Assembly: GCF_964213995.1 (NCBI RefSeq)
Contig: NW_027590189.1
Location: 682,001-746,000 of the forward strand
Reading direction: 5' to 3'
DNA length: 64,000 bases
Source: Mustelus asterias
Taxonomy: Eukaryota
The notes beneath the pieces are model-generated. The model saw nothing but the letters and a program-made list of their open reading frames with translations, was not told the DNA's origin and searched no databases. A program made the translations under genes and the position numbers. The stretch's first letter is position 1, and each line of letters opens with the position of its first letter. Positions 1 to 58,511 of this stretch are shown here, one piece after another.

Positions 1-169
1 CCCAACACTAACATGACCAGCAGCAATTATTCCCCATCCCCAGTTACCTGAGTGAAGATGATGTATTATTTTCTTGAACCACTGCAGTCTGTGTGGTGAA
101 GATGCTCTCACAGTGCTGTTAGATAAAGTATTACAGGTTATTCACCCAGTGTTGATGAACAGTTACATC

Positions 170-860
170 TTCAAATCAACAACAGCAATATGTAAAGTGA
201 GGTTGAGAGCAGTAGATATTTAGGGAGGAAATTCCACAGCCTGGAGCCTGGGTAACTGAAAAAATGGCCAACACTTACATAGCGATTCAAATCAGGAATG
301 TTCAAGTGACCAGAATGAGATGAGTTGCAAAGGTCTTAAAGGTTGTTTAGATGGAGGAGATGACAGAGATAAGGATGATCACAGCCATGCTAGTAAACAA
401 GGATGAGAATTTTAAAATTGAGATGATTATTCACCGAGAGCGTTTACAGGCCAGTGAGCACAGGGGTGATGTGTGAACAAGACGGTGTGAGTAAGCACAT
501 GGGCAGCAGAGTTCAGGATGACCTCAAGCTTGCAGGGAGGCTGAAAGTGGGAGTGTGTGATGAGAGTTAAGTCTCGAAGTAACAAAGGAATGGATGAGAG
601 TTTCAGCAGCAGACGAGCTGAGACCAGGGCAGAATCAACCAATGTTACTGAAGTGGGCTCGCTGATGATGCCAATTGTGGTTGGAAGCTCAACACAGGGT
701 CACATAGTTCACTGAATCAGTGCGTCAGACAGCGACCGGAGAGAGGGATGGAGTCAGTGGTGAGGAAAGTGAAGTTTGTCGGGGGGATTGAGGTCAATGA
801 CACCCATCTCCCAATATTTAAATGGAAGAAATTTCAGCTAATCCAGTGCTGGATGTCAGA
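170..860 (-). mobile_element. Degraded L2-clade LINE remnant
   Basis: Minus-strand ORF 427..642 (KLEVILNSAAHVLTHT...HWPV) resembles the L2 ORF2 C-terminus; homologous block at ~32830-33250. Confidence 0.55.
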
Positions 861-1349
861 CAAGTCAGGAAGGTGTGTGAGTTAGAGCGGAACTTGCAGG
901 TGATGAAATTCACATACTTCGGTTGCCCTGGTCCTTCTAGACATTGGAGGTTGAGAATTTGGAAGATTCTGTCAAAGTTTTGTTTCCGTATTCGGGAGAA
1001 AATCCATCTCTTTTGCCTCCTGTCTTTTCTACCCCCTTTCTCTCCCAATAAGGCGAGAGTTTTGTGTGGACCCAGACCAGGTGGCAGGTTACCTGAAGGA
1101 CATTAATGAACCAGTTTCTTACAACAGTCCAGCAGTTTTCATGGTCATTTTTTCCGAGTGCCAGGCCCAAAAATTACCAGATTCATTCAGCTCAATTTCA
1201 CAACCTACCTTTCTATCTCACTCTCTTTTTTATTTTAAATCTGTCTCACAGGGTGTTAGAAAGGGAGGATTTGCAGTTGGGAGACTGAAACTGAACATCA
1301 GGATCTGTGGAGTCACCCAATTTATCCTAACCTGAATAGGATTTTGAAC

Positions 1350-2695
1350 ATGGAAGAAACATCAGAGTGGAGAGAAACCGTACACGTGTTCTGTTTGTGG
1401 ACGAGGTTTCAGCCAATCATCTGGCCTTTCAAGACATAAATGCAGTCACAACAGGGAGAAACCATAGAAATGCAAGGACTGTGGGAAAGGATTTGATTAT
1501 CCAGTTAGGCTGGAAACTCATTGGCATAGTCACACTGGGGCGAGGCCGTTCACCTGCTCCACATGTGGGAAAGGATTCACTCAGTCATTCGCTATGATGG
1601 CAAACCAACATAGTCACACTGGAGAGAGGCTGTTCGCCTGCCCCAAATGTGGGAAGGGATTCGCTCAGTCATCCCACTTGCTGACACACCAGAGAGTTCA
1701 CATTGGGGAGAGACCGTTCACCTGCTCCGAATGTGGGAAAGGATTCATTCAGTCATCTCACCTGCAGAAACACCAACATAGTCACACTGGGGTGAGGCCA
1801 TTTACCTGCTTTGACTGTGGGAAGGGATTCACTCAGTCATCCCATCTGCAGAAACACCAGCGAGATCACACTGGGGAGGGACCGTTCACCTGCTCTATGT
1901 GTGGGAAGGGATTCACTCAGTCATCTGACTTGCTGTTGCACCAGCAAATTCATTCTGGGGAGAGACCATTCATCTGTTCCCAATGTGGGAAGGGATTAAT
2001 TCTGTCATCTCACCTGCAGACACACCGAGTTCACATTGATGGTAGACCTTTTAAATGTCCGGATTGTGGACAATGTTATAAAAGCTCCGGGGAACTGATG
2101 TATCATCAACGTGTTCACTCTGATCAGAAACTGTTCAGGTGCTCTCACTGTGGGACTGGGTTCAGGCAATCATCTGTCCTCCTTGTACAGCAGTGAATTC
2201 ACACTAGGGAGAGGCCGTTCATCTGTTCTGACTGTGGGAAGGGATTCGCTCAGTCATCTGACCTGCGAACACACCAACGAATTCACACTGGGGAGAGACC
2301 ATTCACTTGCCTCAGGTGTGAGAAGGGATTTATTAATTCAACCAACCTGCTGAGACACCGGAACGTTTACATTGCGAGAGAGACCTTTCTTATCCTCCGA
2401 ATGAGGGAAGAAATTCACTCAGTTATCCTTTAAACACCCAAATGTTCACATTAACTGGAGAACTTGTAAATGCAAAGTCCCAGGCATTGTCATATAGGTT
2501 GCCAGGAACTGATGTCCCATCAATGTGTTCACGCTGATGAGGTGTTCTCATTGTGGGACTGGGTTCACTATTCATCTCAACTCACTGCACACCATCAAGT
2601 TTACACTGGCGAGAGGTTGTGCACCTGGTGTGAATGTGGAACGGGTTTGCTTATTTAATCCCATGTCCTGAGTCACCAGTGAGTTCTCAACTAAC
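1350..2695 (+). pseudogene. C2H2 zinc-finger pseudogene ZNF-A (paralog of the 33767 and 45533 genes)
   Basis: Finger/TGERP repeats; frameshift after ATG 1350; in-frame TAG at 1465 and TGA at 2194; residual ORF 1594..2196; decayed fingers to ~2695. Confidence 0.85.
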
Positions 2696-3162
2696 TACCG
2701 TGATTGGAGTTTGCTGTTAATCACATCCAGGACTGAACTGGGGTCTGTTTTTGCTGATGTTAATGAACTCCAGCCCAGTTATAGTTAATATTCCTTCATG
2801 CCCTCTCAGGCTCATTTCACTCATGAGACTCTCATTCTGCTTCATGCACCCTATTCCCACTGAGCTACTGATCGCTCAATCTCATCATGTTTACTGATAC
2901 TGTTAACAGTCTCTCTCTCTATATATACATATTGTCCTTCTCTCTTTCAAATCTGCCTTCATTACCCCCTCCCCAATAAAATCAACTCTGAACTCCAATC
3001 TCCTTGGAAATTTGTACCCCATCTCTCATCACCCCTTCTTCTGCAAAGTCCCTGTCACCTCTTAAATCCATGTCCATCTTTTCTGGAACTCCATATTTGA
3101 ATCCCCCCAAAATGTGGTGGATGCTGGGAAATTTACTGTTGCACCAGCACCATTTACTGTTC

Positions 3163-3503
3163 GTGTGTTAGCAGGTCAGATGACTGAGCGAATCCCTTCC
3201 CACAGTCAGAACAGGTGAACGGCCTCTCCCTAGTGTGAATTCACTGCTGTACAAGGAGGACAGATGATTGCCTGAACCCAGTCCCACAGTGAGAGCACCT
3301 GAACGGTTTCTGATCAGAGTGAACAAGTTGATGCTACATCAGTTCCCCGGAGCTTTTATAACATTGTCCACAATCCGGACATTTAAAAGGTCTCCCATCA
3401 ATGTGAACTCATTGGTGTGTCTGCAGGTGAGATGACGGAATGAATCCCTTCCCACATTGGGTACAGATGAATGGTCTCTCCCCAGAGTGAATTTGCTGGT
3501 GCA
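3163..3503 (-). repeat. Inverted duplicate of ZNF-A segment 1937-2274
   Basis: Reverse complement matches 1937-2274 with few substitutions and one 3-bp indel, including the same premature TGA. Confidence 0.95.
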
Positions 3504-3508
3504 CCAGG

Positions 3509-3680
3509 TAGTAAATTCATGGAGGAGTTAGACAGATTTTTAATTGTAATGGGTTGAAGGGTTATGGGGAGAAGGCAGGAAAATTGGGATGAGGAACATA
3601 TCAGGCATGATCGAATGGTGGAGCAGACTCAATGGGCCAAATGGCCCAATTCTGCTCCTATATTTTATGAACTTATGAAC
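3509..3680 (+). mobile_element. CR1-type LINE 3' end fragment
   Basis: Typical 3' UTR gatcgaatggtggagcagactc..gggccaaatggcc..ttctgctcctat with ttatgaac tail. Confidence 0.75.
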
Positions 3681-4244
3681 TCCAATAACATTTCTGTTCC
3701 TGCACAATATCAGAATAGCTCTTATCAAACTCATAAATTACATCCTCTGCGAATGTGACAATGGTAAACTTCCCTTCATTGCCCTTCCCACCCAGTCTCA
3801 AATCTTTGACACCATTGACCAAACCATCCTCCTTCAATGTCTCACCACTGTTGGTAAGCTGATGGGGCTGCAGATTTCTGATTTCCCTTCTTGTCTATCA
3901 AATTGTAGCCAGAGAATCACCTGAAGGAATTGTGAGTATTTGAGTTACATTTTCACACACTCACTCATTGGGTAAGTGACGAGGTGCCATTGAATTTTGA
4001 AAGAAAAATGTTCCATTGTCACATTCACAGCGACTCTATCTTGTACACCAGCCCATCTGGATAAGATTAACACAGAAGAATAAAAATATTATAGTCCAGA
4101 ATGCAAACTCATGGTGGTAAAAACAGTCTGCTAATTACAATTAAAATGCAATGCATTGCACGACAACGCTGTTACTTTGTTACAGACCTCATGACACAGA
4201 TTCATTGCCAACATTGGCCAACAGCTCCATTGTTGCAGGATGCA

Positions 4245-5225
4245 GATGATACAGATGAAGAAGTAGGCCATTCAGCCACTCGAGCCTTTTTCACTGTTTA
4301 ATATGGTCATGACTGATCAGATAATAACCTCAAATCAACATCCCGTCTGCCCACAGTAACCTATCACACCCTTGCTAACCAATAGCATATCCACCTCTGC
4401 CTTCAAAATAATGAGACTTTGCTTTCACAACCTTCTCAAGAAATGAGTCCCAAAGACTTATGTTGCTCCAAGTCAAAGCATTTCACCTCATCTTTGTTTT
4501 ATTGGGTGACCCTTTATTTTTAAGCAGTGACCTCTATTTCTAGATTCTCCAAAAACAGGAAACATCCTCTCCACGTCCACAATCTCAACACCCCTTAGAA
4601 TATGAAGGGATTTCCCTCTCACTCCTCTAAACTACAGCAGATACAAGTCTAGCCTGTCTAACTTTTCAGCATAAGACAACCCACACATTCCAGGCATTAG
4701 TCTGGTGAACATCTGAAATTCCTCCATATATATTCTTTAAACTACATTTTTCCTTAAATAGTATAACCAATACTGTACACATTACGCCAAACATGGTCTT
4801 ACCAATTGAAGCATAAACTTTTGTATTTAATTCCTCTCACAATAAATGATAACATTCTAAAAGCTATTCTAATTACTTGCTGTACCTGCATACTAGTCTT
4901 TTGTGATTCGTGCACTGGAACACCCAAATCCCTCTGCACCTCAGCGCACTGAAATCTCTCCAATTAGATAATAAGCTTTTCCATTCTTACAGGCAAAATG
5001 AACAATTTCACATTTTCCCACATTATAGCTCGATCTTTGCCCACTCACTTCATCCATCTATATGTTTTTGTTGCCTCCTTCTGTCCTCTTCACAACTTAC
5101 TTTCACACTTACTTTTTTGTTATCAACAAATTTGGCAACAATCCCAAACAGACTTTCATCTGAGTCATTTTTATCAATTGTAAAAAGTTAAGGCCGCATC
5201 ACTGATCCCTCTGGCACACCTCTCA
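4245..5225 (-). mobile_element. Old degraded CR1-type LINE
   Basis: Reverse-strand GVPQGS-like motif near 5200 and CR1 3' UTR near 4260-4330. Confidence 0.65.
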
Positions 5226-5227
5226 TT

Positions 5228-5795
5228 AGATTTATAGGACCCTGGTTAGACCCCACTTGGAGTACTGCGCGCAGTTCTGGTCACCTCATTACAGGAAAGA
5301 TGTTGAAGCCATTGAAAGGGTGCAGAGGAGATTTACAAGGATGTTGCCTGGATTGGGGGGCATGCCTTATGAGGATAGGTTGAGGGAGCTTGGTCTCTTC
5401 TCCCTGGAGAGACGAAGGATGAGAGGTGACCTGATAGAGGTTTACAAGATGTTGAGAGGTCTGGATAGGGTAGACTCTCAGAGGCTATTTCCAAGGGCTG
5501 AAATGGTTGCGACGAGAGGACACAGGTTTAAGGTGCTGGGGGGTAGGTACAGAGGAGATGTCAGGGGTAAGTTTTTCACTCAGAGGGTGGTGGGTGAGTG
5601 GAATCGGCTGACGTTGGTGGTGGTGGAGGCAAACTCGTTGGGCTCTTTGAAGAGACTTCTGGATGAGTACATGGGATTTAATGGGATTGAGGGCTATAGA
5701 TAGGCCTAGAGGTAGGGATATGATCAGCGCAACTTGTGGGCCGAAGGGCCTGTTTGTGCTGTGGCTTTCTATGTTCTATGTTCTATGTTTTATGT
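5228..5795 (+). mobile_element. CR1/HER1-like LINE, 5'-truncated
   Basis: ORF 5257..5703 (LEYCAQFWSPH...RGDLIEVYK...FFTQRVV) and (ttctatg)n tail. Confidence 0.92.
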
Positions 5796-5804
5796 TGCTA
5801 ACCG

Positions 5805-6115
5805 CACATTGGCTCAGTGGTTAGCACTACTGCCTCACAGTGCCAGGGACCATGGTTTGAATCCAGCCTCGGGTCACAGTTTGTGTGGAGTTTTCATGTT
5901 CTCCCTGTGTCTGCGTGGGTTTCCTCTGGGTGCTCTAGTTTCCTCCCTACTCCAAAAATATGCAGGTTAGGTGGATTGGCCATGCTAAATTGTCCCTTAG
6001 TGTCCCAAGACATATAGTTTAGGGAGATTAGCGGGGTAAATATGTGGGGTTATGGGAATAGGACCTGGGTGGTATGCTTTGTCGGTGACTCAATGGGCCG
6101 AATGGCGCCTTTGAA
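5805..6115 (+). mobile_element. HE1-type V-SINE (tRNA-derived)
   Basis: A/B box head cagtggttagcact..ggtttgaatcc; V core gtgtctgcgtgggtttcctc. Confidence 0.88.
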
Positions 6116-6221
6116 TCTTTGAACCTGCAAAGGACTCACTCATGCCAACTCTGAGCTTCCTGTTAGCCAGTCAGAAACTATCCAGACCAGTATTCTATCC
6201 CCTATCTGTGATGGTCGGAGA

Positions 6222-6386
6222 AAGAAGTTTAACAACACCAGGTTAAAGTCCAATAGGTTTATTTGGTAGCAAAAGCCACACTTTTGGTGTGGCTTTTGCT
6301 ACCAAATAAACCTGTTGGACTTTAACCTGGTGTTGTTAAACTTCTTACTGTGTTTACCCCAGTCCAACGCCGGCATCTCCACATCA
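6222..6386. mobile_element. Penelope-like element terminal remnant forming a 60-bp inverted repeat
   Basis: Arms 6222-6281 and 6287-6346 (one mismatch, 5-nt loop); same tail as 26590-26640; flanked by ATGGT(C/A)GGAGAAA at 6211 and 6386. Confidence 0.8.
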
Positions 6387-6499
6387 TGGTAGGAGAAATA
6401 CATTGATACTTCTGATTATGCTATCCATATGTGAACAGAATCTCACCTTCACTTCTCCAGATTTAGAGAAAGATTATCTGATACTGGGTCTCTAATGGC

Positions 6500-6850
6500 A
6501 GCAGGATTACCCACAGTCCCGTGCGCCTCGGAAAGCGCTCTACATCGGCGGGTTGTGCGTGTGGCTGGCGCATGCTCGGAGGGAGCAGGTCTCTTTGAGG
6601 TGATTTGTGGGGAGAAGCCGGAAGTGGCAGAAGTGAGTGGAGAATGTTCACTGTAAACCCCGCCCCTTCGAGACTGACCTTTCACCTGGCACCTCACAAT
6701 GCCCGGGGACTGATTGACGGCAGCTCCGGACCAATAGAAACAGAGGGGGGTGAACGGCTGGTCCTCAAACCAATCGGAGTGAATGAGGGGGCGGGGCTGT
6801 AACTGAAGCATGCGCAGTGCGGGTGTTGAGCTGCAAGACCTCTTCAGAAA
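6500..6850 (+). promoter_or_regulatory. CpG-rich promoter module upstream of ZNF-B
   Basis: ETS site CCGGAAGTG, two CCAAT boxes, GC boxes, NRF1-like GCATGCGCAG; module shared with 26698, 44330 and 55013. Confidence 0.75.
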
Positions 6851-6953
6851 TTCCATCCTGTCCTTCCAGTGAAAAGTTTCCTCAACTCCTTTTACAGGGA
6901 GTGAGAAAGGGAGGATTTACAGACGGGAAAGTCAGAGCAAACATCACATCAGG

Positions 6954-7282
6954 TTAGAATAGAATCATAAAATCCGACTGTGCAGAAAGAGGCCATTCGG
7001 CCCATCGAGTCTGCACCAACCACAATCCTCCCCAAGGCCATATCCTCATAACCCCACGTGTTTACCCTCCCTAATCCCCCTGACAACAAGGGATAATTGA
7101 GCATGGCCAATCCACCTAACCTGCATATCTTTGGACTGTGGGAGGAAACCGGAGCACCCGGAGGAAACCCACGCAGACACAGGGTACAAACTCCACAAAG
7201 ACAGTGACCCAAGCTGAGAATTGAACCCCGGTCCCTGGCGCTGTGAGGCAGCAGTGCTAACCACTGTGCCACAGTGCTGCCC
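6954..7282 (-). mobile_element. HE1-type V-SINE
   Basis: Full-length reverse copy with CR1-type tail. Confidence 0.92.
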
Positions 7283-7443
7283 ACAAAGTTTAAATGAGTT
7301 TCCACCCTGCTGAGGCACCAGCAGATTCACGTGGGGAGAGGCCATACATCGACTCCGTATGTGGCAAGGGATTCACTCAGTCCTCGGGACTTTGCACACA
7401 CACCAGGGAATTCTCACTGTGGAGAAAGCATTCAGCAGCTGGT
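7283..7443 (+). repeat. Local duplicate of ZNF-B segment ~7939-8085
   Basis: acaaagtttaaatg...cactgtggagaa matches 7939-8085. Confidence 0.85.
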
Positions 7444-7737
7444 TCTGACAGTCAGTCTTCATCAGGACCTGAATATCATTGGTCTTGAATGTGGAAGGAG
7501 AAATGTTTGTTCTGCCCATGGGGAAAGATTTCGAACATCAGTGTGACTGGAAAAGTGCTAAGACACACACACATCCCTGTGAGAGTGTTCCAGTGAACTG
7601 ACCATGGAAAGCTTTAACCAGTTACAGTCTGAAAAAAACACCACAGCATTCACAGCAAAGAGAAACTGTACTCGTGTGTGTGAATGAGGCTTCAACTGAT
7701 CATCAAACCAAGAGAGAGACACAGGGACACTGGCACC

Positions 7738-8404
7738 ATGGAGAAAACGTGGAAATGTGGGGACTGTGGGAAGGGATTCAATTATCCATCCCAGCTGGAA
7801 ATTCATTGACGCAGCCACACTGGGGAGAGACTGTTCACCTGCTCAGTATGAAGAAAATTATTCACTCAGACAACCAAACTCATTTTACACCAGCGAATCC
7901 ACACTGAGGACAGGCCATTCAGCTGCACTCAATGTGGAACAAAGTTTAAATGCACTTCCACCCTGCTGAGGCACCAGCAGATTCACAGTGGGGAGAGACC
8001 ATACACCTGCTCTCTATGTGGCAAGGGATTCACTCAGTCTTCGGGACTTTGCACACATCAGAGAATTCACACTGTGGAGAAGCTGTACTTCCTGTGGAAA
8101 GAGGTTCAGGCAGTCATCTGAGCTCAATGAACATCAGCAAATTCACACTGGGGAGAGGCCATTCATCTGCTCTGTGTGTGGGAAGGGATTCACTCAGTTA
8201 TCCCACCTTCTCAGACACCAGCGAGTTCACACTGAGGAGAAACTATTCAACTGCACTTCCTGTGGAAAGAGGTTAAGGCAGTCATCTGACCTCAAAGCAC
8301 ATCAGCGAGTTCACAGTGGGGAGAGGCCATTCATGTGCTCTGAGTGTGGAAAGGCATTCACACGGTCATCCCACCTGCTGACACACCAGCACATTCATAA
8401 GTGA
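7738..8404 (+). pseudogene. C2H2 zinc-finger pseudogene ZNF-B
   Basis: ACCATGGAGAAA start, TGA at 7807 in finger 1, frameshift near 8060-8080; four terminal fingers ending HK*. Confidence 0.85.
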
Positions 8405-21483: not shown

Positions 21484-22382
21484 TCAGTTGCTGCAAGTCC
21501 CCAATTTTTCCCAGAATGCAAAAAGAAAGTGTTTTACTCACAGATGTTGGCCAGAGGAGGAAGTTTGAATCTATCTGAAGCTCAATCTTTGTTCAGAGAG
21601 AGGAGGAGGATGAGCAGCAGTTTGCTGGACAAACAATGGAGGAACATTCGTGCAGCCATTGACACAAGGCCCGGACTCTGACTGGCTGGAGGACCAGGAC
21701 TGATCTGGTCCTCCACGCATTGCCATTGGTCAATCTGCCGCATGTAGACAATGGGGGGGGCGGAACCCGAGCCCACGTGGGGGTGGGCGGTGCTTTGACC
21801 GCCAGCCGCGCTGAGCTGGTGTCCAATCCGCAGTGTGCGGCTTCTGTAACCAGTGATATTGCTGCCAATGGGACAGTGTGTGCTGGGAACGCCCCTCTGA
21901 GTCATTGTGACGGCACAATAGAGCCCTGCCTCAATCAGCCAACAGCAATCACTCTGCTCCGCGCCAACATCCTTGGATGGATCCCAGTGCGCAGGCCCGG
22001 ACGCGCGGACGTGGGAGCCCCGCCACCACCCGTTGTGCCCCCTCCCCCGGCACCTCCACGAGCCAAGGTTTCCAGGCACCCGGCCCTGAGGGAGAGGGGA
22101 AACTGCGCATGTGCAGGGGAGAGCCCGCCCCCTGACCGTCAGACTGAGGTGTTGACCAATGGGAAGAATTGGAGGACCGGAAGGATCCCGGTCCTCCAAC
22201 CAATCACAGGACGGGCTTTTTGTGACTGCAAATTGCGCTTCAGACTGACTGAAACTTCCTCCTGTTTGTTTATTTGGTTTGACCTTAAAAAGAGGCCAAC
22301 ATCTGTGAGTAAAACACTTTCTTTTCTCCCCCTTTCCATTTCTTTTCTCACTCTGGGGGAAATTGGGGACTTGCAGCAACTG
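21484..22382. promoter_or_regulatory. Bidirectional CpG-island promoter and non-coding first exons for ZNF-D/ZNF-E
   Basis: CpG-rich with CCAAT and GC boxes; the donor motif GGCCAACATCT|GTGAGTAAAACACTTTC is present on both strands (21541 minus, 22305 plus). Confidence 0.8.
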
Positions 22383-22657
22383 ATCACAAGAAATAGAAGC
22401 AGGAGAGGCCACCAGGCCCTTCAAGCGACCCTGCCATTCAGTACAATCCTGGCTGATCGATGCCGAACTCCTTTTGTGAGCCATTTCCCCATCGCCCTCT
22501 ATTCCTCAATCTATCAAATATTTATCCACCTCCATTTTAAATACTTCTAATGATTCAGCCTCTTCCATGCTTTGGAGCAGAGAATTCCAGAGATTCACCA
22601 CCCTCTGCGAGAAGAAATTTCTCCGCACCTCAGTTTTAAATGACTGGCCCTTTAACT

Positions 22658-32825: not shown

Positions 32826-33766
32826 GTAGTGCGCACAGGGGTGATGGGTGAACAAGACTTGATGTGAGTAAGCACATGGGCAGCAGAGGTTTGGATGAGC
32901 TCAAGTTTACAGAGAGGTTGAATGTGGGAGGCCGGCTGGGAGTGCGTTTGGATAATTACATCTAGAGGTGACAAAGGAAAGAATGATTGTTTCAGTCGCA
33001 GGTAAGCTGAGACTGGGGTGGAGTCAATGACGTCAGTGACGTGGAAATAGACGCTCTGGGTGATGTTGATATGTGGTTGGAAGCTCGTCTCAGTTACACA
33101 AAATACTCCCTGGCTGTGAACAGTCTGGTTGAGCCTCAGACTGTTACCAGTGGGAGGGATGGAGTCCATGTCCAGGGGATGGAGTTTGTAGAAGAGACTG
33201 AAGGCAATGGCTTTGTACTTCCTAATATGCAAGTGGATTGTCAGACAAGTCAGTGCAGTGTATGTGTTGGAGAACTTGCAGGTGATAGTGTTCACATAAT
33301 CCCGCTGCCCTGGTCCTTTGAGGTGAGGAGGTTCAATGTTTAATGGTTCGGTCAAAGTTCTGGCTGAGTGGTTTATGTATAAAATCCCTCTTCTTTGCCT
33401 CCTGCCTCTCCACTTCTCTCTTCCTCCCTCTCTCCCTCCTTCTCCTCCCTCAGAGGCCAAAGTCTTGTCCAGACTGGTAGGTTCCCTTCCCTGTAGGACA
33501 TTAGTGAATCAGTTGGGTTTTTATGACAATACAGCAGTTTTCATGGTCACTTTTTCTTAGTGCTGGCCCCAGATTCATTCAGCTCAATTTCACAACCTGC
33601 CTTTGTGTTTTGGGGGTTCTCTCTCACTTCCTTTTTTCTGTTTTAAATCAATTTTGCAGAGTAACAGAAGGGAAGGTTTGCAGTCATGGAACAGGAAACT
33701 AAACATCACATCAAAATCTGAGAGTCAATTATTTTATCGTACCCTGAATATCATTGGATTTTAATC

Positions 33767-34636
33767 ATGGAAGGAAAACGCCCTGTTCACAGCGGAGAGA
33801 AACTATACACATGTTCTGTGTGTGCACGAGACTTCAACCAACCATCTGCCCTGTCAGAACATCAATGTCACCACACTGAGGAGAAGCCGTGGAAATGTGG
33901 GGACTGTGGGAAGGGATTCGATTACCCATCCCAGTTGGAAATTCATCATCGCAGTCACACCGGGGAGAAACCATTCACCTGCTCGGACTGCGGGAAGGGA
34001 TTTACTAAATCTTCCACCCTGCTGACACACCGGCGCACTCACACTGGGGAGAGACCATTCACCTGCTCCGATTGTGGGAAAGGATTCACTCAGTCATCCA
34101 ACCTGCTGACCCACCAGCGAGTTCACACCGGCAAGAGACCATTCATCTGCTCAGTGTGTGGGAAGGGATTCACTTTTTCAGCCAACCTGATGACACACCA
34201 ACAAGTTCACACTGACGTGAGACCTTTTAAATGCCCAGACTGTGGGAAATCTTTTAAAACTTCTCAGGAACTTATGTACCATCAACGTCTTCACACTGAG
34301 GAGAGGCCGTTCAGGTGCTCACACTGTGGGACTGGGTTCAGACGTTTGTCACATCTCACTGTACACCGACGCACTCACAGTGGAGAGAAACCATTCACCT
34401 GTTCAGAGTGTGGGGAGGGATTCACTCAGTCATCCACTCTGCTTAGACACCAGCGAGTTCACACTGGGGAGAGACCATTCACCTGCTCCAAGTGTGGGAA
34501 GAGATTCACTCAGTCATCCACTCTTCATCGACACCAGCGAGTTCACACTGGGGAGAGGCTGTTCATCTGCTCCAAGTGTGGAGAGGGATTCACTAAGTTT
34601 CCCAACCTACTGATGCACCAACAGGTTCACAAGTAA
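33767..34636 (+). CDS. C2H2 zinc-finger protein ZNF-F, 10 fingers
   Basis: Intact 289-aa ATG-initiated ORF. Confidence 0.92.
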
Positions 34637-38899: not shown

Positions 38900-39640
38900 A
38901 TTGATGTCCCCAAGGAAACACTGCACATTGATTATACAGACCCACCCTCCACATTAAAAGGAGGGGACCGGCAGTTATATATATGTTTACTTATTGGACT
39001 GAGGCTTGCGCTGTTTGTAAAAACAATGTAGCAGTCACTACAGCTAAAACCTTGTGGGAACAGATCTTTACCAGATGGGGCTTTCTGGAAAAGGGCAGAG
39101 TGACAATGGTTCTCATTTCACTGCAGAAGCAATGCAGCAGCTGTGTCATCTTGTGGGTCTGGAACAACATTCCCAAATCTACCTGCAATCTAGTGGGATG
39201 GTTGAGAGCTTTAATAACTCTGGAGAAACAAGCCATCGTGAAGGGAGCTGATGATCTGGTTAAGGCCAATGACTGGGTCACTGCCTTGCCTGGTGTCTCA
39301 ATGACCATTCACTCCCCTCCTGTTCATGATCCCGGTCACAGTCCATTTCAGGTCATGACGAGTCAGCTAATCCAGATTGTGATTCCCACCAGGGCCCACT
39401 CCCCAATGCTACTCGACAGACTCATGAGCAGTTTTCCAGAATTTCCAACAAATCTTAGCACCCTCCCTGCTCCAGACAGTGGAGAGGTTGGATGCTGCCC
39501 ATCTCAACACCTCCATCGAGGAACACCTCACACATTACCTCACCACCTATAGAACGATTAATGTTAAAAACATTGTTAAAAAAAGGTGGGCCAGGTGGAA
39601 AATTGGGACGGTCCACATCGTGTTCTCAATAGATTGGAAA
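38900..39640 (+). mobile_element. LTR retroelement (Gypsy/retroviral-type) integrase remnant
   Basis: MFTYWTEA..TAKTLWEQIFTRWG / QSDNGSHFT..QSSGMVE across frameshifts. Confidence 0.72.
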
Positions 39641-42864: not shown

Positions 42865-43620
42865 ACTGGAGTTTAAAAACAGCGAGGTTATGTTGCAGCT
42901 GTATAAGGTGCTGCTGAGGCCACACCTGGAGTACTGTGTACAGTTTTGATCTCCTTACTTGAGAAAGGATATACTGGCACTGGAGGGGGTGCAGAGGAGA
43001 TTCACTAGGTTGATTCCGGAGTTGAGAGGGTTGGCTTATGAGGAGAGACTGAGTAGACTGGGGCTATACTCATTGGAATTCAGAAGAATGAGGGGAGATC
43101 TTATAGAAATATATAAGATTATGAAGGGAATAAATAAGATAGAAGCAGGGAAGTTGATTCCAGTGGTGGGTGAAACTCGAACTAGGGGGTATAGCCTCAA
43201 AATAAGGGGAAGCAGATTTAGGACTGAGTTGAGGAGGAACTTCTTCACACAAAGGGTTGTGAATCTGTTGAATTCCCTGCCCAGTGAAGCAGTTGAGGCT
43301 ACCTCATTGAATGTTTTTAAGGGAAGGATAGATAAATTTTTGAACAATAAAGGAGTTAAGGGTTATGGTGAGCGGATGGGTTAGTGGAGCTGAGTCCACA
43401 AAAAGATCAGCCATGATCTTATTGAATGGTGGAGCAGGTTCGAGGGGCCAGATGGCTGACTCCTGCTCCTAGTTCTTATGTTATGTTTTTTATATGGGGA
43501 AGAGGTGGGGAGGTGAATTTGAGACCAGGGAGAGATCAGCCATGATCTGATTGAATGGCGGAGCAGGCTCGAAGGGCTGAATTTGCCTACTTCTGCTCCT
43601 AATTCTTATATTCCTATGTC
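42865..43620 (+). mobile_element. CR1 LINE 3' portion plus a second 3' end
   Basis: ORF 42959..43384; two successive 3' UTRs. Confidence 0.88.
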
Positions 43621-43967: not shown

Positions 43968-44208
43968 CATGATGTGGAGATGCCGGCGTTGGACTGGGGT
44001 GAACACAGTAAGAAGTCTCACAACACCAGGTTAAAGTCCAACAGGTTTATTTGGTAGCAAAAGCCACACAAGCTTTCAGAGCGCTCTGTGCCCTGTTTGA
44101 GAGCAGATTTCCACTCCATCTGACGAAGGAGCAGTGCTCCGAAAGCTAATGGTATTTGCTACCAAATAAACCTGTTGGACTTTAACCTGGTGTTGTTAAA
44201 ACTCTTAC
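43968..44208. mobile_element. Penelope-like terminal remnants in inverted arrangement
   Basis: Minus copy 43968-44085 (truncated within the ribozyme) and plus copy 44087-44208. Confidence 0.82.
44116..44152 (+). ncRNA. Minimal type I hammerhead ribozyme motif
   Basis: CCAU-CUGACGA-A-GGAGC(AGU)GCUCC-GAAA-GCUA-AUGG. Confidence 0.82.
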
Positions 44209-44259
44209 ACTGACATTGCCACTTGGTCAGCGTTCCCCTGCTCTCTTTGTTGGAGTTTG

Positions 44260-44900
44260 AAGTGGCGGACAGTGATAGTCGTAAACCCCCCCCCCCCCCC
44301 CGACGACACTGACCTCTCACCTGACACCTCACAATGCCCGGGGACTGATTGACGGCAGCTCCGGTCCAATAGCAGGAAGGGGCGGGGCTGGAGGAGCGAG
44401 CGGCAGCGGCTGGTCCTCCAACCAGACTGAATGAGGGGCGGGGCTGAGTGAAGCATGCGCAGTGTGATTAATGGCGATGGAGAGAGGATTTCTCGGATCC
44501 ACAATCAGAAAAAGTGGGAATGGCGGGCGGAGGCAGCGATGAATCAGGCGGAGGGATTAGAGAGGCTTCGTAATCATGAACAACAAACCTCTGCAAAAAA
44601 AACCGACCGCTATCCGAAGATGGTCCCGGCCGTTTGCACAGAGCAAGGCCGCTGCTTTCTTCCCGCGACAGACCCGGGTTAACTGCCGCCATTTTTATCC
44701 GGGCACTACCAATATGGCGCATGCGCGGTTGCCATCTTTATTAGGAGCAATAGCCCTCTATTAGAAGCGCATGCGCAGCCGCCCTCTTTATGAGGGGCAA
44801 TGATTTTGAAATTCGCCCGAGTGACAGAATGTGAACAACTTGTCCATCAAACTGCTTCGCTCTTTCACTTCCAATTTCTTACTGATGAGGCAGAGCAACG
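44260..44900. promoter_or_regulatory. CpG-island promoter between divergent ZNF-G and ZNF-H
   Basis: Shared CCAAT/GC module; NRF1 palindromes GCGCATGCGC at ~44717 and ~44767; YY1 GCCGCCATTTT. Confidence 0.78.
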
Positions 44901-44982
44901 ATATAATCATTTGTATCATAGTCTCTTTAACAAAATATAATATTCCTAGATATTCCTCAAAATTGTTGCAGTTCTTTGAAAA

Positions 44983-45230
44983 GGGGTGGCAAGTTGTTAG
45001 CACTGCTGTCTCACAGCTCCAGCCATGTGTGACTCTGTCCCCTCTTGTCTGCGTGGGTTTTCATCCAGGTGCTCCGGTTTCCTCTCAGTCCAATGATGTG
45101 CAGGTTAGCTGGATTGCCATGCTAAATTGCCTCTTAGTGCCCCAAGATATTAGGGGAAGTAACGTGATAAATATGTGGGGTTATGGGCATAGGACTTGGG
45201 TGGGAAGCTTTGTTGGAGATTCAGTGCAGA
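44983..45230 (+). mobile_element. Degraded HE1 SINE
   Basis: V core gtctgcgtgggttttcatccaggtgctccggtttcc. Confidence 0.7.
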
Positions 45231-45532
45231 GTCCAGACCAGTTGGCAAGTTTCCTTCCCTGAAGCACATGAGTGCATCAATTGAATCAAGCATGTTTCAT
45301 GGTCACTTTTTCCTCGTGCTGGCCCCACATATTACCAGATTCATTCAGCTCAATTTCACAACCTGCCTTTGTGTTTTTGTAGGTTCTTTCTCACTCCTTT
45401 TTTTCTATTTCAAATCAATTTCACAGGGTTTAGAAGAGGACGATTTGCAATTGGGAAACAAACCAAACATCACATCAGGGGCTGATAAAGTCGACCAATT
45501 TATCGTAACCTGAACATTGTCATATTTTGAAC

Positions 45533-46570
45533 ATGGAAGGAAAAAGCACCGTTCACAGTGGAAATAAATCATACTTGTGTTCTGTGTGTGGACAAGGATT
45601 CAATCGATCATCTGGCCTGTCAAAACATAAATGCAGTCATGATGGGGAGAAGCCGTGGAAATGTGAGGAATGTGGGAAGGGATTCAATTACCCATCCCAG
45701 CTGGAAACTCATCAGCGTGGTCACACCGGGGAGAGGCCGTTCACCTGCTCTGACTGCGGGAAAGGATTCACTAAGTCATCCACCCTGCTGACACACCAGC
45801 GCACACACACTGGGCAGAGGCCATTCACCTGCTCTATGTGTGGGATGGGATTCACTCAATCATCCACACTGCTGACACACCAGCGAATTCACACTGGGGA
45901 GAGGCCTTTCACCTGCTCTGACTGTGGGCAGGGATTCACTCACCAATCCACCCTGCTGACACACCAGCGAGTTCACACTAGGCAGAGACCGTTCACCTGC
46001 TCTGAGTGTGGGAAAGGATTTATTAATTTATCCAACCTGACGACACACCAAAGAAATCACAGTGACGAGAGACCGTTTAAATGTCTGGACTGTGGGAAGT
46101 GTTATAAAACCTCTCAGGAACTGATGTCCCATCAACAAGTTCACACTGACGAGAGACCGTTCAGGTGCTCTCACTGCGGAACTGGGTTCAAGCGATCATC
46201 TCATCTCACCGTTCACCAGCGCACTCACACGGGAGATAGACCGTTCACATGCTCTGAGTGTGGGGAAGGATTCACTCAGTCATACACTCTGCTGAGACAC
46301 CAGCGAGTTCACACTGGAGAGAGACCATTCACCTGCTCCAGGTGTGGGAAGAGATTCACTCAATCATCAGCACTGCTAAGACACCAGCGAGTTCACACTG
46401 GGGAGAGGCTGTTCATCTGTAATGATTGTGGGAAGAGATTCACTCAGTCATCCAACCTGCTGACACACCAGCGAGTTCACACCGGGGAGAGACCATTCAC
46501 GTGTTCTGTGTGTGGGATGGGATTTACTCAGACATCCAACCTGCTGAGACACCAGCGAATTCACAATTAA
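45533..46570 (+). CDS. C2H2 zinc-finger protein ZNF-H, 12 fingers (close paralog of ZNF-F)
   Basis: ATG at 45533 ([10 protein letters not shown]); intact to TAA 46570; acceptor ttcacag|G at 45426. Confidence 0.92.
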
Positions 46571-47303
46571 CTCCAGAGATTGGATTGTGTTGTCAATCAG
46601 ATTGAAAACTGAGCTATGTCCATTAGGGTCTATTTCTGCTGACGTTAATAAACTTCAGGTCAGTTATAGAGGCTAATATTTGGGACAAAAATCAAATATG
46701 TTGTCTTTGATTTAAACATGCTGTGTCAAAACCTTTTAATATCTCGAACACAAGTTAGTTCCTTTTGAAGGACTTTCTCTTGTCTCCTCCATCTTCACCT
46801 CCAACAACAAAGTGTGAGGAGCTCATGGAGTTTTTTTGTCACTAAGATTGAGACAATCTGATCAGCTGCCTCTGCTGCTTCCCTCCCTTCCACTAGCCTC
46901 TGGGCCAGACTTTCTGTAAAGCTCCTCTGTATCCAAGCTCTGAACTCACATCTTTTTCCAGTTTCTCTCCTATTTCCTGTCAGTCCCTCTCATTGCCCAT
47001 CTTGTCTATGAGACTTGCTTTCAACTCCTTTTACCCTTTTCCCACTAAACCACTGATAACCCAACTTCCCCACATTACCTGGTACTGTTAATGGACCTGT
47101 CTTTTTTGATACTCTCCATCTCACCTGTAATTCACCCTCATCATCCATCCTAAGGAAAAAACCCTTAACCGCACTGTCGTTACAAACTACTGTCCCAACT
47201 CCAACCTCCCTTTCCTCTCCAAAGTCCTTGAACTTTGTGTCTCCCAAGGATCTTTCCTTGGCCCCTCCCATTTCCCGTGCTGCCACTGGGTGACATCATC
47301 CAT

Positions 47304-54573: not shown

Positions 54574-55060
54574 CTGGGTTCAGTTCTCCAGCTGCTGTCT
54601 GCAGACTGACAATAAAACCAATGGCTCTTATTGGGGGTGTTGGGGCCTCCAGCGGGTGTTTGTGAATCCTCCCCGCCCACCTCCCAGGGTTTCCTTCCTT
54701 CCCAGAGATCAGAGTCCTCATTGATTTGAGGCCAAAGTCTAACCTCTTATTTATTGTCCCCCTCCCCCATCCTCTGATGTGAACCATCCTCCAGTGGCTG
54801 AGCCAGGATGGGGCCGTTAACCTGGGCCTGTTCCCGGGAGGGAGGGAGGGAGAAGCCCCGCAGCTGCAAACCAGGGAGCTGACAATGATTCTGAAGGGTT
54901 TGCGGATCCACAAAGTGTTTCCAAATCCTCCCAGCCACCGCCTAACGCTGACTCCGCTTCTCCGGGACAAACAAGCGCCAAGGACAGCAATGACACTGCG
55001 CATGCTCCACATCACAATGCCCGGGGACTGATTGACGGCAGCTCCGGACCAATAGGAAGA

Positions 55061-55250
55061 GGGGGCGGGACTGGCCGACCGAGCGGGAGCGGCTGGTCCT
55101 CCAACCAATCGGAGTGAACGAGGGGCGGGGCTGGAGGACCGAGCGGGAGCGGCTGGTCCTCCAATCAATCAGAGTGAACGAGGGGCGGGGCTGGAGGACC
55201 GAGCGGGAGCGGCTGGTCCTCCAACCAATCGGAGTGAATGAGAGGCGGGA
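55061..55250. repeat. 60-bp tandem repeat (~3.2 copies) in the promoter
   Basis: gagcgggagcggctggtcctccaaccaatcggagtgaacgaggggcggggctggaggacc. Confidence 0.95.
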
Positions 55251-55539
55251 CCTGAAGCATGCGCAGTGCGGGTAATGGCGACGGGTAGACGGGCGGTTTT
55301 AATTTGGAGGCGAGATCAATACTAGGTAGGGGGCGGCGCGCGGGGAATGATAAATGTGGCGGGTGGGTGGAGAGACTTTGTAAACATGTTGTTCAAACCC
55401 AGACCCCGGAAATGAACTTCCCGGTCCCCCCCTTTGTACCAAATGGAGCGGCAGCTTGTAGTGTTAGACCCGGGCTGACTGCCGCCATTGAGGCTGCATG
55501 TGGGAGGCCGGCAGGGATTGTGATCGGAGAGGGAAGCCC

Positions 55540-55613
55540 TGACGTCACAATGGAATGGGTGAGAGTGTGACATCACAATGGAATGGGTGAGTGTGTGACG
55601 TCACAATGGAATG
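55540..55613. repeat. 28-bp tandem repeat (~2.6 copies) carrying CRE palindromes
   Basis: TGACGTCA at 55540 and 55596, TGACATCA at 55568. Confidence 0.9.
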
Positions 55614-56405
55614 TGATCGGAGAGCGAAATTTCACTCTGAAGCTCATTGGACAACTTCCGCATTGTGACGCTACGATAGAACCCTGCCTGAATCAGCCAA
55701 TAGGAATCACTGCGCTCCGCGGTGATGTCTCCGGGTTCCATGGTGCAGGCCCGGGCGCGCGGACCCGGGAGCCCCGCCCCCACCCATTGTTCCCCTCCCC
55801 CTACACCACATCGAGCCAAGGTTTCCAGGCAACCGGCTGACGGCTCTGGCCAGAGCGAGAAGCCGCTCGGTGATCTCCCCCTCCCCCCGCCCGGGACTGC
55901 AAAATGTGCGAGGGAGAGGGGAAGCTGTGCATATGCGGGGGAGAACCCACCCTCTGAATGAGAGAGGAAAGAATGTTCCATAGAAACTAGAATTGTCTGT
56001 TCTGAATTTCTACCCTGTACTGACACTGATGACTTTTGGAAACTCATTTTCCAGGATATTGAAAGAGGAATCACAGGCTGAAATCTCAAACGTCACGTCT
56101 AGATCTGACAGAGTCATATTCCTTGGGACCTCAATATCATCGGACTTTGAATCCAGAAGGAGAAATGATTGTCCAGTCTGTCGATTTGAAAAGATTTGAA
56201 ATGTCAGTGTGAGTGAAAAAGCGTCAACACACTGCCACACTCGAGTGAGTGTGTTCCAATGCACTGACTAAAGAGCTTTAACCAGTTACACAGTCTGAAT
56301 AAATATCACACCATTCACAGCAGGTGGAGACTGTAATCTTGTTCTGTGTGTGGACGAAGTTTCAACTAATTGTCCACTCAAGAGTGAGGTAAGGACACCT
56401 GCACC

Positions 56406-58511
56406 ATGGCGAAACCATGGAAATGTGCGGACTGTGGGAAGGGATACGGAACCCCATCAGAGCTGGAAGCTCATCGGCGCAGCCACACTGGGGAGAGGCC
56501 GTTCATCTGCTCTCAATGTGGGAAGGGATTCAGTCAGTTATCCAACCTGCAGAGACACCAGCGAGTTCACACTGGGGAGAGGCCGTTCACCTGCTCTCAA
56601 TGTGGGGAGGGATTCACTCAGTCATCCCACCTGCAGAGACACCAGCGAGTTCACACTGGGGAGAGGCCCTTCACCTGCTCTCAGTGTGGGAAGGGATTCA
56701 CTCGGATATCCAGCCTCCAGAGACACCAGCGAGTTCACACTGGAGAGAGGCCGTTCACTTGCTCTCAGTGTGAGAAGGAATTCACTTATTTATCCAGCCT
56801 GCAGACACACCAGCGAGTTCACACTGGGGAGAGGCCATTCACCTGCTCTCAGTGTGGGGAGGGATTCACTCGGTCATCCCGCCTGCAGTCACACCAGCGA
56901 GTTCACACTGGAGAGAGGCCGTTCACCTGTTCTCAATGTGGGGAGGGATTCACTCAGTCATCCCACCTGCAGAGACACCAGCGAGTTCACACTGGAGAGA
57001 GGCCGTTCACTTGCTCTCAGTGTGAGAAGGAATTCACTCATTTATCCAGCCTGCAGATACACCAGCGAGTTCACACTGGGGAGAGGCCGTTCACCTGCTC
57101 TCAGTGTGGGGATGGATTCACTCAGTCATCCCGCCTGCAGAGACACCAGCGAGTTCACACTGGAGAGAGGCCATTTACCTGCTCTCAGTGTGGGAAGAGG
57201 TTCACTCAGTTATCCAGCCTGCAGAGACACCAGCGAGTTCACACTGGGGAGAGGCCATTCACCTGCTCTCAGTGTGGGAAGGGATTCATTCAGTTATCCG
57301 AGCTGCGGACACACCAGCGAGTTCATACAGGGGAGAGGCCATTCACTTGCTCTCAGTGTGGGGAGGGATTCACTCGGTCATCCAGCCTGCTGACACACCA
57401 GCGAATTCACACTGGGGAGAGGCCGTTCACCTGCTCTCAGTGTGGGAAGGGATTCAATCAGTTATCCAACCTGCAGGCACACCAGCGAGTTCACACTGGG
57501 GAGAGGCCGTTCACCTGCTCTCAGTGTGGGAAGGGATTCACTCGGTCATCCGACCTGCGGGCACACCAGCGAGTTCACACTGGGGAGAAGCCCCCATTCA
57601 CCTGCTCTCAGTGTGGGAAGGGATTCACTCGGTCATCCCACCTGCAGAGACATCAGCGAGTTCACACTGGGGAGAGACCGTTCACCTGCTCTCAATGTGA
57701 GAAGGGATTCACTCTGTCATCCCACTTGCAGACACATCAGCGAGTTCACACCGGAGAGAGACCATTCACCTGCTCTCAGTGTGCGAAGGGATTCATTCAG
57801 TTATCCAGCCTGCAGAGACACCAGCGAGTTCACACTGGAGAGAGGCCGTTCACCTGCTCTCAGTGTGGGAAGGGATTCACTCAGTTATCCAGCCTGCAGA
57901 CACACCAGCGAGTTCACACTGGGGAAAGGCCGTTCACCTGCTCTCAGTGTGGGAAGGGATTCACTCGGTCAACCCATCTGCGGACACACCAGCGGGTTCA
58001 CACTGGAGAGAGACCGTTCACCTGCCCTCAGTGTGGGAAGGGATTCACTCGGTTATCCAGCCTGCAGACACACCAGCGAGTTCACACTGGGGAGAGACCA
58101 TTCACCTGCTCTCAGTGTGGGAAGGGATTCACTCGGTCATCCGACCTGCGGACACACCAGCGGGTTCACACAGGGGAGAAACCATTCACCTGCTCTCAGT
58201 GTGGGCAGGGATTCACTCAGTCATCCAGCCTGCGGGCACACCAGCGAGTTCACACAGGGGAGAGGCCGTTCACCTGCTCTCAGTGTGGGAAGGGATTCAC
58301 TCAGCTTTCCAACCTGCAAACACACCAGCGAGTTCACACTGGGGAGAGGCCGTTCACCTGCTCTCAGTGCGGGCAAGAATTCACTCAGTTATCCAACCTG
58401 CAGACGCACGAGCGAGTTCACACTGGGGAGAGGCCGTTCACCTGCTCTGTGTGTGGGAAGGGTTTCAGCGTTTCATCCCGGCTGCTGAGGCACCAGCAAG
58501 TTCACGAGTGA
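56406..58511 (+). CDS. C2H2 zinc-finger protein ZNF-J, 25 fingers, highly homogeneous array
   Basis: Intact 701-aa ORF = 25 x 28 aa plus one Pro insertion; Kozak ACCATGG. Confidence 0.93.

Follow-up and report, generated by a model that had tools for sequence, protein, structure and literature searches.

The stretch of DNA analysed here, 64 kb in length and referred to throughout as the window, contains a cluster of C2H2 zinc-finger (ZNF) genes and pseudogenes situated among LINE remnants. Its SINE and CR1 sequence types resemble those of cartilaginous fish, and an exact look-up of proteins F, H and K identified none of the three. Near its left end, positions 1350-2700 of the plus strand carry the finger-coding exon of a C2H2 ZNF pseudogene (gene A), a paralog of the intact genes F (33722-34636) and H (45509-46570). 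A Pfam zf-C2H2 match covers 1468-2193 of this exon (E 1e-45). The exon is damaged by an 8-nt gap relative to F just past the ATG at 1350, by a TAG at 1465-1467 and by a TGA at 2194-2196, and its 3′ part contains a further frameshift near 2374 followed by additional stops. The DNA at 453-1300, upstream of gene A, is homologous to that upstream of F, and the sequence on the intron side of the exon can still be aligned with F. No promoter region for gene A was located within the 64-kb window.

Other features were recorded along the window. Two CpG-rich kilobases, 44001-45000 and 55001-56000 (observed/expected ratios of 0.72 and 0.77), lie between the divergent ZNF pairs G/H and J/K and are likely, from their composition and position, to be shared promoters of these pairs; a similar layout was seen for the D/E pair near 21500-22600. 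An intact 707-residue open reading frame at 56388-58511 encodes ∼24 near-identical fingers with 88% internal DNA identity, as would result from a recent internal finger expansion. Direct local duplications are present in two further decayed ZNF genes (14225-14430/15018-15223, 93% identity; 7283-7426/7939-8081, 89% identity). A short element, which we take to be Penelope-like or MITE-like, occurs twice as a fold-back, at 6219-6349 with 63-nt arms and a 5-nt loop (below threshold against miRNA hairpin models) and at 44008-44208 with 59-nt arms 83 nt apart. The 206-residue frame at 38932-39552 resembles the integrase region of a decayed LTR retrotransposon, and two other LINE open reading frame pieces in the window gave no match in Pfam.

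Self-alignment of the window by BLAST paired 1937-2274 with 3503-3163 in inverted orientation at 96.2% identity over 341 columns, the two segments being separated by 888 nt, in agreement with a sequence-only reading that had described 3163-3503 as the reverse complement of 1937-2274 across a spacer of ∼890 nt. Once the junctions were resolved, arm A could be placed at 1935/1937-2278 on the plus strand and arm B at 3159-3503 on the minus strand, with ∼96% identity and a spacer of 880 nt. The arms contain approximately four fingers, including the KCPDCG..ELMYH motif and a further motif of ten residues. Among other copies in the window, the best matches just 72% of the arm length, and the next-closest matches are found in H (78%) and F (76%), the two genes with which the finger pair had previously been said to be shared. 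Thus, the insert is an inverted copy of nearby DNA. Arm B is the inverted copy and arm A the donor. Across 1937-2278, the arms are distinguished by 11 substitutions and one 3-nt indel, a total of 12 scattered differences.

Both arms carry the TGA at 2194-2196, as had been noted before, and in both the preceding zinc-binding His is replaced by Gln. Given that the stop and the loss of the His are common to the two arms, gene A was already dead at the time of copying, which upholds the earlier proposal that the duplication postdates the stop. Conversion between the arms had been offered as an alternative explanation for the shared TGA. Simulations make this process dispensable, as in 32% of them the 12 differences leave an identical stretch of 89 nt; conversion was set aside on this basis.

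The possibility that the inverted arm is an assembly artefact, produced by a chimeric or fold-back read, was assessed using contigs compared over 2280-4400 (the arm B side) in four of 21 runs, namely X1, X5 (organism B), X9 (organism E) and X14 (organism F). Single contigs of run X1 differ from the window at 3862 and at 4073-4082; the assembly does not therefore agree with this run to the letter, which would lend some credence to an artefact. The left junction is spanned by a contig from run X5 (record 19), which covers 3049-3209 with three other letters and extends over 81 letters ahead of 3130 and 47 beyond 3162. Because this contig from organism B crosses the left junction and the arms differ at 12 scattered sites, an artefact is largely refuted and may be regarded as of negligible likelihood. 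The inverted repeat is confirmed as real rather than the product of chance, and, as judged from these contigs, the insert is common to the lineage of the window and to organism B.

The contigs also revealed variation around the locus. Pieces from runs X9 and X14 on the 3′ fingers have 9 of 138 and 17 of 252 other letters, respectively; no long contig piece across the spacer or the junctions was obtained from either run, a gap in cover that carries no weight. Run X1 seems to contain two versions of the region, ∼5% apart at 2638-2795 (7/146) and at 4122-4342 (13/221), and the second version has alleles in common with organism B. In run X5, too, a second version seems to be present at some positions. 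Such versions might stem from deep haplotypes, from a hybrid or from a segmental duplicate. A G is inserted after 3862 in the sole X1 and X5 contigs at this position, and X1 differs at 4073-4082 beside the AATAAA at 4079; assembly error and polymorphism are possible causes of these differences.

The spacer (2279-3158, plus strand) consists of the decayed 3′ fingers of gene A, sequence beyond the stop that gene A has in common with F and H, an older repeat remnant, the stub of a LINE and a short filler. The older remnant (2790-3104, plus strand) is LINE-like and apparently resumes at ∼3680; it shows a 65% match to 46974-47230 downstream of H (tblastn, E 1.5e-4) and is presumably of L2 type. Pfam RVT_1 found no match in two stop-free pieces representing the two sides of this remnant. 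The stub comprises 25 nt of a LINE fragment (3105-3129, plus strand) and reads PQNVVDAG (3105-3128), matching the C-terminal ORF2 motif of the RT-bearing LINE copies in the window. The remainder of this fragment lies beyond arm B at 3510-3679 on the same strand and includes the end of ORF2 with a further ten-residue motif, the 3′ UTR and a short repeat tail. Alignment of 3510-3679 to a LINE 3′ end near 43300-43500 gave a score of 112, compared with 34 or less for shuffled sequences. The fragment is assigned here to a CR1-type LINE, a name that we take from its motifs. Given the match downstream of H and the motifs that we take to be L2-like, the CR1 fragment seems to interrupt an older L2-like remnant, the identity and continuity of which are putative.

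Contigs of other copies of the host element established the state of this fragment without the insert. Position 3129 is joined to 3510, with five family letters between them, in one contig from run X1, four from X9 and one from X14, with sides of 23-25 letters. In all four runs, the loose ends of contigs before 3510 give continuous family sequence, of which five letters are missing in the window. Since other copies are continuous from 3129 to 3510, the insert replaced ∼5 nt of the CR1 fragment; 380 nt now stand in their place within a fragment of 195 nt, and there is no target-site duplication. This continuity is provided by paralogous host copies and not by an empty orthologous allele. An allele with the same flanks and the CR1 lacking the insert was not found among the contig joints listed, beyond which lie 166 further joints, and the pattern of an empty CR1 site gave no matches in metagenome contigs. 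The pieces of contigs that cover the CR1 tail differ by 5.5-14.4% (median of 12.5% for the 13 longest pieces listed, a sample that does not represent a subfamily consensus), as against a change of 1-2% in each arm. These tail pieces diverge more than either arm has changed, which tentatively suggests an earlier date for the CR1 than for the insert.

Between the stub and arm B lies a filler of 29 nt (3130-3158, plus strand), which exact matches resolve into an inverted copy of 3510-3517, a forward copy of 1935-1946, 3 nt and an inverted copy of 3510-3515. Hence 26 of the 29 letters are exact copies of the junctions. The 14-mer at 3136-3149 occurs only there and at 1933, and a 14-nt match in 1-8000 was produced by just 2 of 2000 shuffled fillers. 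The first 20 letters of the filler preserve, in inverted form, the original state of the right junction. The present right junction (3496-3509, plus strand) has been remodelled; it differs from the state preserved in the filler and contains a perfect 12-nt palindrome (3496-3507). Microhomology at the first switch amounts to 2 nt (3136-3137 with 1933-1934), or 4 of 5 nt if one mismatch is allowed, and at the fold-back to 4 nt (3138-3141 with the arm end, where position 3162 is taken as G, the letter present in all five X5 contigs). At the left join it is at most 1 nt, and 1-2 nt taken singly are within chance. The locus thus displays both microhomology at the template switches and a junction-templated filler, two features expected of a templated insertion.

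The best reading of these data, with a probability of approximately 0.72, is that the locus is the neutral scar of a microhomology-mediated templated insertion into a pre-existing CR1 fragment. According to this scheme, a break or stalled fork would have opened the CR1 at 3129/3510, where the ∼5 nt are missing. The bottom-strand 3′ end at 3510 would then have primed on the pseudogene ∼1.6 kb upstream, at 1935, through 2 nt of microhomology and copied 344 nt. The new end would have folded back onto its own junction through the 4 nt of microhomology and copied 6 nt, after which the fold-back end could have undergone slippage and recopied 20 nt of the junction before it was joined to the left end. 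The right junction would have been altered afterwards to give the palindrome. We infer the order of these steps, and the participation of Pol theta or of an MMBIR-type enzyme, from pieces that are themselves directly visible. A single outside jump on the bottom strand would account for nearly all of the filler pieces. The opposite order, with top-strand synthesis first, was set aside, as the filler would then need more outside templates. Six nucleotides of the right junction (3504-3509) are not fully explained by the proposed synthesis; run X5 has a C at 3509.

An alternative origin for the same scar is the retrotransposition of the CR1 itself. Here, the 3′ end of the cDNA would leave its RNA at 3510, copy nearby ZNF DNA or antisense ZNF RNA and snap back, and would then regain the CR1 RNA 5 nt further up for 25 nt before being joined. 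Such a scar would be equally functionless. The insert lies just 25 nt from the 5′ truncation point of the 195-nt fragment and grows in the direction of the would-be cDNA strand, a geometry that fits this model and counts against repair, as does the fact that no empty allele was seen among the joints listed. LINE 5′ junctions are reported often to bear extra nucleotides derived from the flank (PMC4245944), and a fungal LINE has been proposed to undergo double template jumps (PMC2104539). The foreign sequence is, however, not at the 5′ junction of the element: given that 25 nt of host CR1 lie 5′ of the insert, a return jump to the same RNA, almost in register, must be assumed. The greater divergence of the CR1 tail pieces relative to the arms also argues against this origin, with the weakness that the pieces were the longest and not the best, a limit that bears equally on the age of the CR1 assumed by the repair reading. 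An origin in retrotransposition is consequently judged unlikely.

Further evidence comes from other local inverted copies. A screen of the whole window for segments within 3 kb of each other that match at 93% identity or more over 35 bp or more returned eight pairs. In three of these, the two members are inverted and resemble one another far more than they resemble any further copy. In addition to the arms of gene A, these comprise a 61-bp inverted copy (36273-36333/37218-37278) that is 100% identical to its donor 884 nt away and a 111-bp inverted copy (48888-48998/49592-49702) that is 97% identical to its donor at a distance of 593 nt. The 61-bp copy lies in the same minus-strand CR1-like element as its donor; it shows 7 nt of microhomology, is bracketed by an 11-nt duplication and would represent a second, young templated insertion. 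The donor of the 111-bp copy belongs to a different LINE (Pfam PF09004 match) that interrupts a CR1, part of which the copy replaces. As this donor LINE interrupts the host, the copy was made after the host had integrated and was not part of its integration. Both copies are internal to their hosts, which weighs against a jump during retrotransposition at the locus of gene A as well. All three recipients lie in CR1 sequence, for which the probability by chance is 0.014-0.04 at a CR1 share of 24-35% (24% being measured, from ORF2-like DNA), a small count made after the fact. A far broader scheme can be built on these data, in which local inverted insertions of 60-350 bp would be frequent in a shark-like lineage with old CR1s as preferred break sites, germline transcription would run across the hairpin and small RNAs directed against the common finger linkers would damp many ZNF genes. 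If true, this would constitute a family-wide RNA brake on ZNF expansion outside mammals; we consider it highly improbable.

The changes accumulated since copying were examined for signs that pairing has been maintained. Arm A, polarised with F and/or H, has six private substitutions, four of which alter a residue, together with a 3-nt deletion that shortens a His-x3-His motif. In arm B, four private substitutions could be polarised, three by F and/or H and one by run X5; one further substitution is unpolarised. In the ZNF frame, arm B has two extra in-frame stops and retains the 3 nt lost from arm A. Both arms have thus drifted independently. None of the 11 substitutions is compensatory, and the 12 differences stand against an expectation of 14.9 derived from the 4.3% divergence of two X5 flank pieces (probability of 12 or fewer, 0.28). 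There is accordingly no indication of selection for pairing, and the numbers of changes are compatible with neutral drift. Two observations lean the other way. All four transitions between the arms leave G-U pairs in plus-strand RNA, a weak trend (one-sided probability of 0.06), and the X5 pieces on arm B differ at 7 of 330 positions compared with 46 of 1063 in the two flank pieces (P 0.025). Outside the arm, however, there is an X5 piece with 3 of 140 positions different, the same 2.1% as in the arm B pieces.

The capacity of the locus to form double-stranded RNA was assessed by prediction. RNA from 1930-3512 is predicted to form 336 arm-to-arm pairs with a minimum free energy of −891 kcal/mol, and the opposite strand 332 pairs. 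The longest perfect run is 89 bp, or 155 bp if G-U pairs are included, and the duplex contains seven mismatches other than G-U and one bulge. The earlier expectation that a read-through RNA could yield ∼340 bp of double-stranded RNA is therefore matched in terms of predicted pairing: the long inverted repeat could possibly form such a duplex if transcribed. Within 1930-3510, Rfam gave no covariance-model match, and the five matches with E ≤ 0.1 in 1-8000 all fall at 6235-6333, below the gathering score. One feature that could end a transcript before arm B is an AATAAA at 2975-2980 (plus strand), the sole canonical poly(A) hexamer between the end of the gene and arm B. This hexamer is absent from the aligned site downstream of H, and the next ones, at 4079 and 4140, lie beyond arm B.

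The sequence-only reading had gone further and cast the hairpin as a silencing device directed at the ZNF family. In such a model, a transcript through both arms would be diced or fed to piRNA biogenesis, ZNF paralogs would be lowered as a result and the structure would have been kept for that purpose. Perfect matches to any of nine other ZNF regions in the window were found for 6 of the 325 21-mers of arm B, with none in F and one in H, and 94 of the 325 lie within one mismatch of another such region. Control windows of 345 nt from other ZNF regions (n = 99) gave medians of 43 perfect matches and 115 within one mismatch, with 11 and 36 of the 99, respectively, scoring as low or lower. Windows of gene A itself that start at 1516-1768 contain 24-30 perfect matches. 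This comparison covers targets in the window, where two decayed ZNF regions were delimited only roughly. Given six perfect matches against a control median of 43 and 24-30 elsewhere in the same gene, the copied piece would not be what one would choose to silence the ZNF family. Contigs at least 85% alike pile up on the finger linkers of arm B, with summed depths of 7e3-2.4e5 compared with 79-131 in the spacer bins at 2777-3060 (run X1; these depths do not represent copy number). The pile-up suggests that partial matches are plentiful elsewhere, so that a genome-wide pool of near matches to the linkers would exist.

Taken together, the predicted pairing, the 155-bp run with G-U pairs, the 21-mers within one mismatch, the linker pile-up, the G-U-compatible transitions and the presence of the insert in organism B speak for the silencing model. 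Against it stand an origin of accidental type, for which the window offers two unrelated parallels, the uncompensated mismatches and the bulge, the scarcity of perfect 21-mers and the AATAAA ahead of arm B. A genome as rich in CR1 as this one is not that of a rodent. The precedent that had been invoked, that of pseudogene hairpins in mouse oocytes, depends on a rodent-specific Dicer isoform, oocyte RNAi having arisen in rodents through an MT insertion in Dicer (PMC6944382), and a second study indicates that full-length mouse Dicer yields few siRNAs from an expressed hairpin or other long double-stranded RNA (PMC6391682). Thus, of the original proposal, the order of events and the pairing capacity are supported, and the silencing device is not; the likelihood of the latter is very small.

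A passive role is a tentative possibility and would be compatible with either origin of the scar. Low read-through or antisense overlap could generate double-stranded RNA that leads to ADAR editing, nuclear retention or decay of the pseudogene RNA alone. Either strand is predicted to fold, the sequence upstream of the exon can still be aligned with F, the hexamer at 2975 is not conserved with H and the one at 4079 lies past arm B, and 139 of the 325 arm B 21-mers match the pseudogene itself. Against this, no promoter was located in the window and the gene contains several stops, so the RNA may be absent or unstable. Any duplex arising from read-through would probably be a passive by-product and not a selected regulator. 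The locus is most likely an ordinary neutral mutational scar rather than a gene-silencing device.

As such, it constitutes a clear fossil of complex templated repair in the germline of a non-model vertebrate. It also advises caution, for accidents give rise to long inverted repeats in ZNF clusters so frequently (three local inverted copies in this window) that such a repeat is not by itself informative about RNAi. The origin of any small RNAs would be directly testable through the 11 substitutions that tell the arms apart. Should small RNAs be found, pseudogene-hairpin silencing would extend beyond rodent oocytes, and a first handle on the tuning of large non-KRAB ZNF families would be at hand. 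No report of an inverted duplication of a ZNF pseudogene as an siRNA source, or of this locus, was found in the main texts of the open-access literature.

Comparison with known systems places the locus as follows. Pseudogene inverted repeats are reportedly sources of endo-siRNAs in mouse oocytes (Tam et al. 2008). With the mouse-oocyte loci, the present one shares a pseudogene inverted repeat able to form a long duplex (PMC6944382, PMC6391682). It is unlike them in that its targets in the window match at 76-78% and not near 100%, in that it is known from its DNA alone and in that this lineage would not be expected to possess the rodent Dicer-O isoform. Its setting, with intact ZNF genes and pseudogenes side by side, resembles the tandem C2H2 ZNF clusters of non-mammalian metazoans, where a family of fast turnover lies in retroelement-rich DNA; neither cartilaginous fish nor pseudogenes, nor the control of ZNF genes by siRNA, are covered in the passages found of that study (Wells et al. 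2023, PMC10547256). A truncated LINE that carries sequence from its flank close to the 5′ end recalls the extra nucleotides of L2/CR1-clade LINEs (PMC4245944). Those extras are few in number and at the 5′ junction, whereas the 380 nt at this locus lie 25 nt into the element and are bordered by LINE sequence to the left and right.

The closest counterparts are found among repair processes. Tracts produced by Pol theta end joining or SD-MMEJ are usually tens of nucleotides in length, which the long tract here exceeds. The locus is like these processes in its short filler of repeated complementary copies of the break ends, in the alternation of trans and cis templates and in its palindromic junction (PMC4912351, PMC2943611, PMC5728401); Pol theta is described as alternating between snap-back and trans extension (PMC4912351). 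Inverted, nearby, microhomology-flanked insertions from multiple templates are described as human germline variants (Osia et al. 2021, PMC8421209). With these MMB-TI events the locus has in common an inverted nearby copy, microhomology at the switches, the replacement of few bases and the use of several templates, a class termed ‘complex’. It departs from them in being an old event with mutations on both arms, and in its main tract of 344 nt from 1.2-1.6 kb, which exceeds the 100-bp limit within which templates were sought in that screen and counts in some measure against the repair reading. In summary, the locus is a templated insertion of a known kind that has been well preserved.
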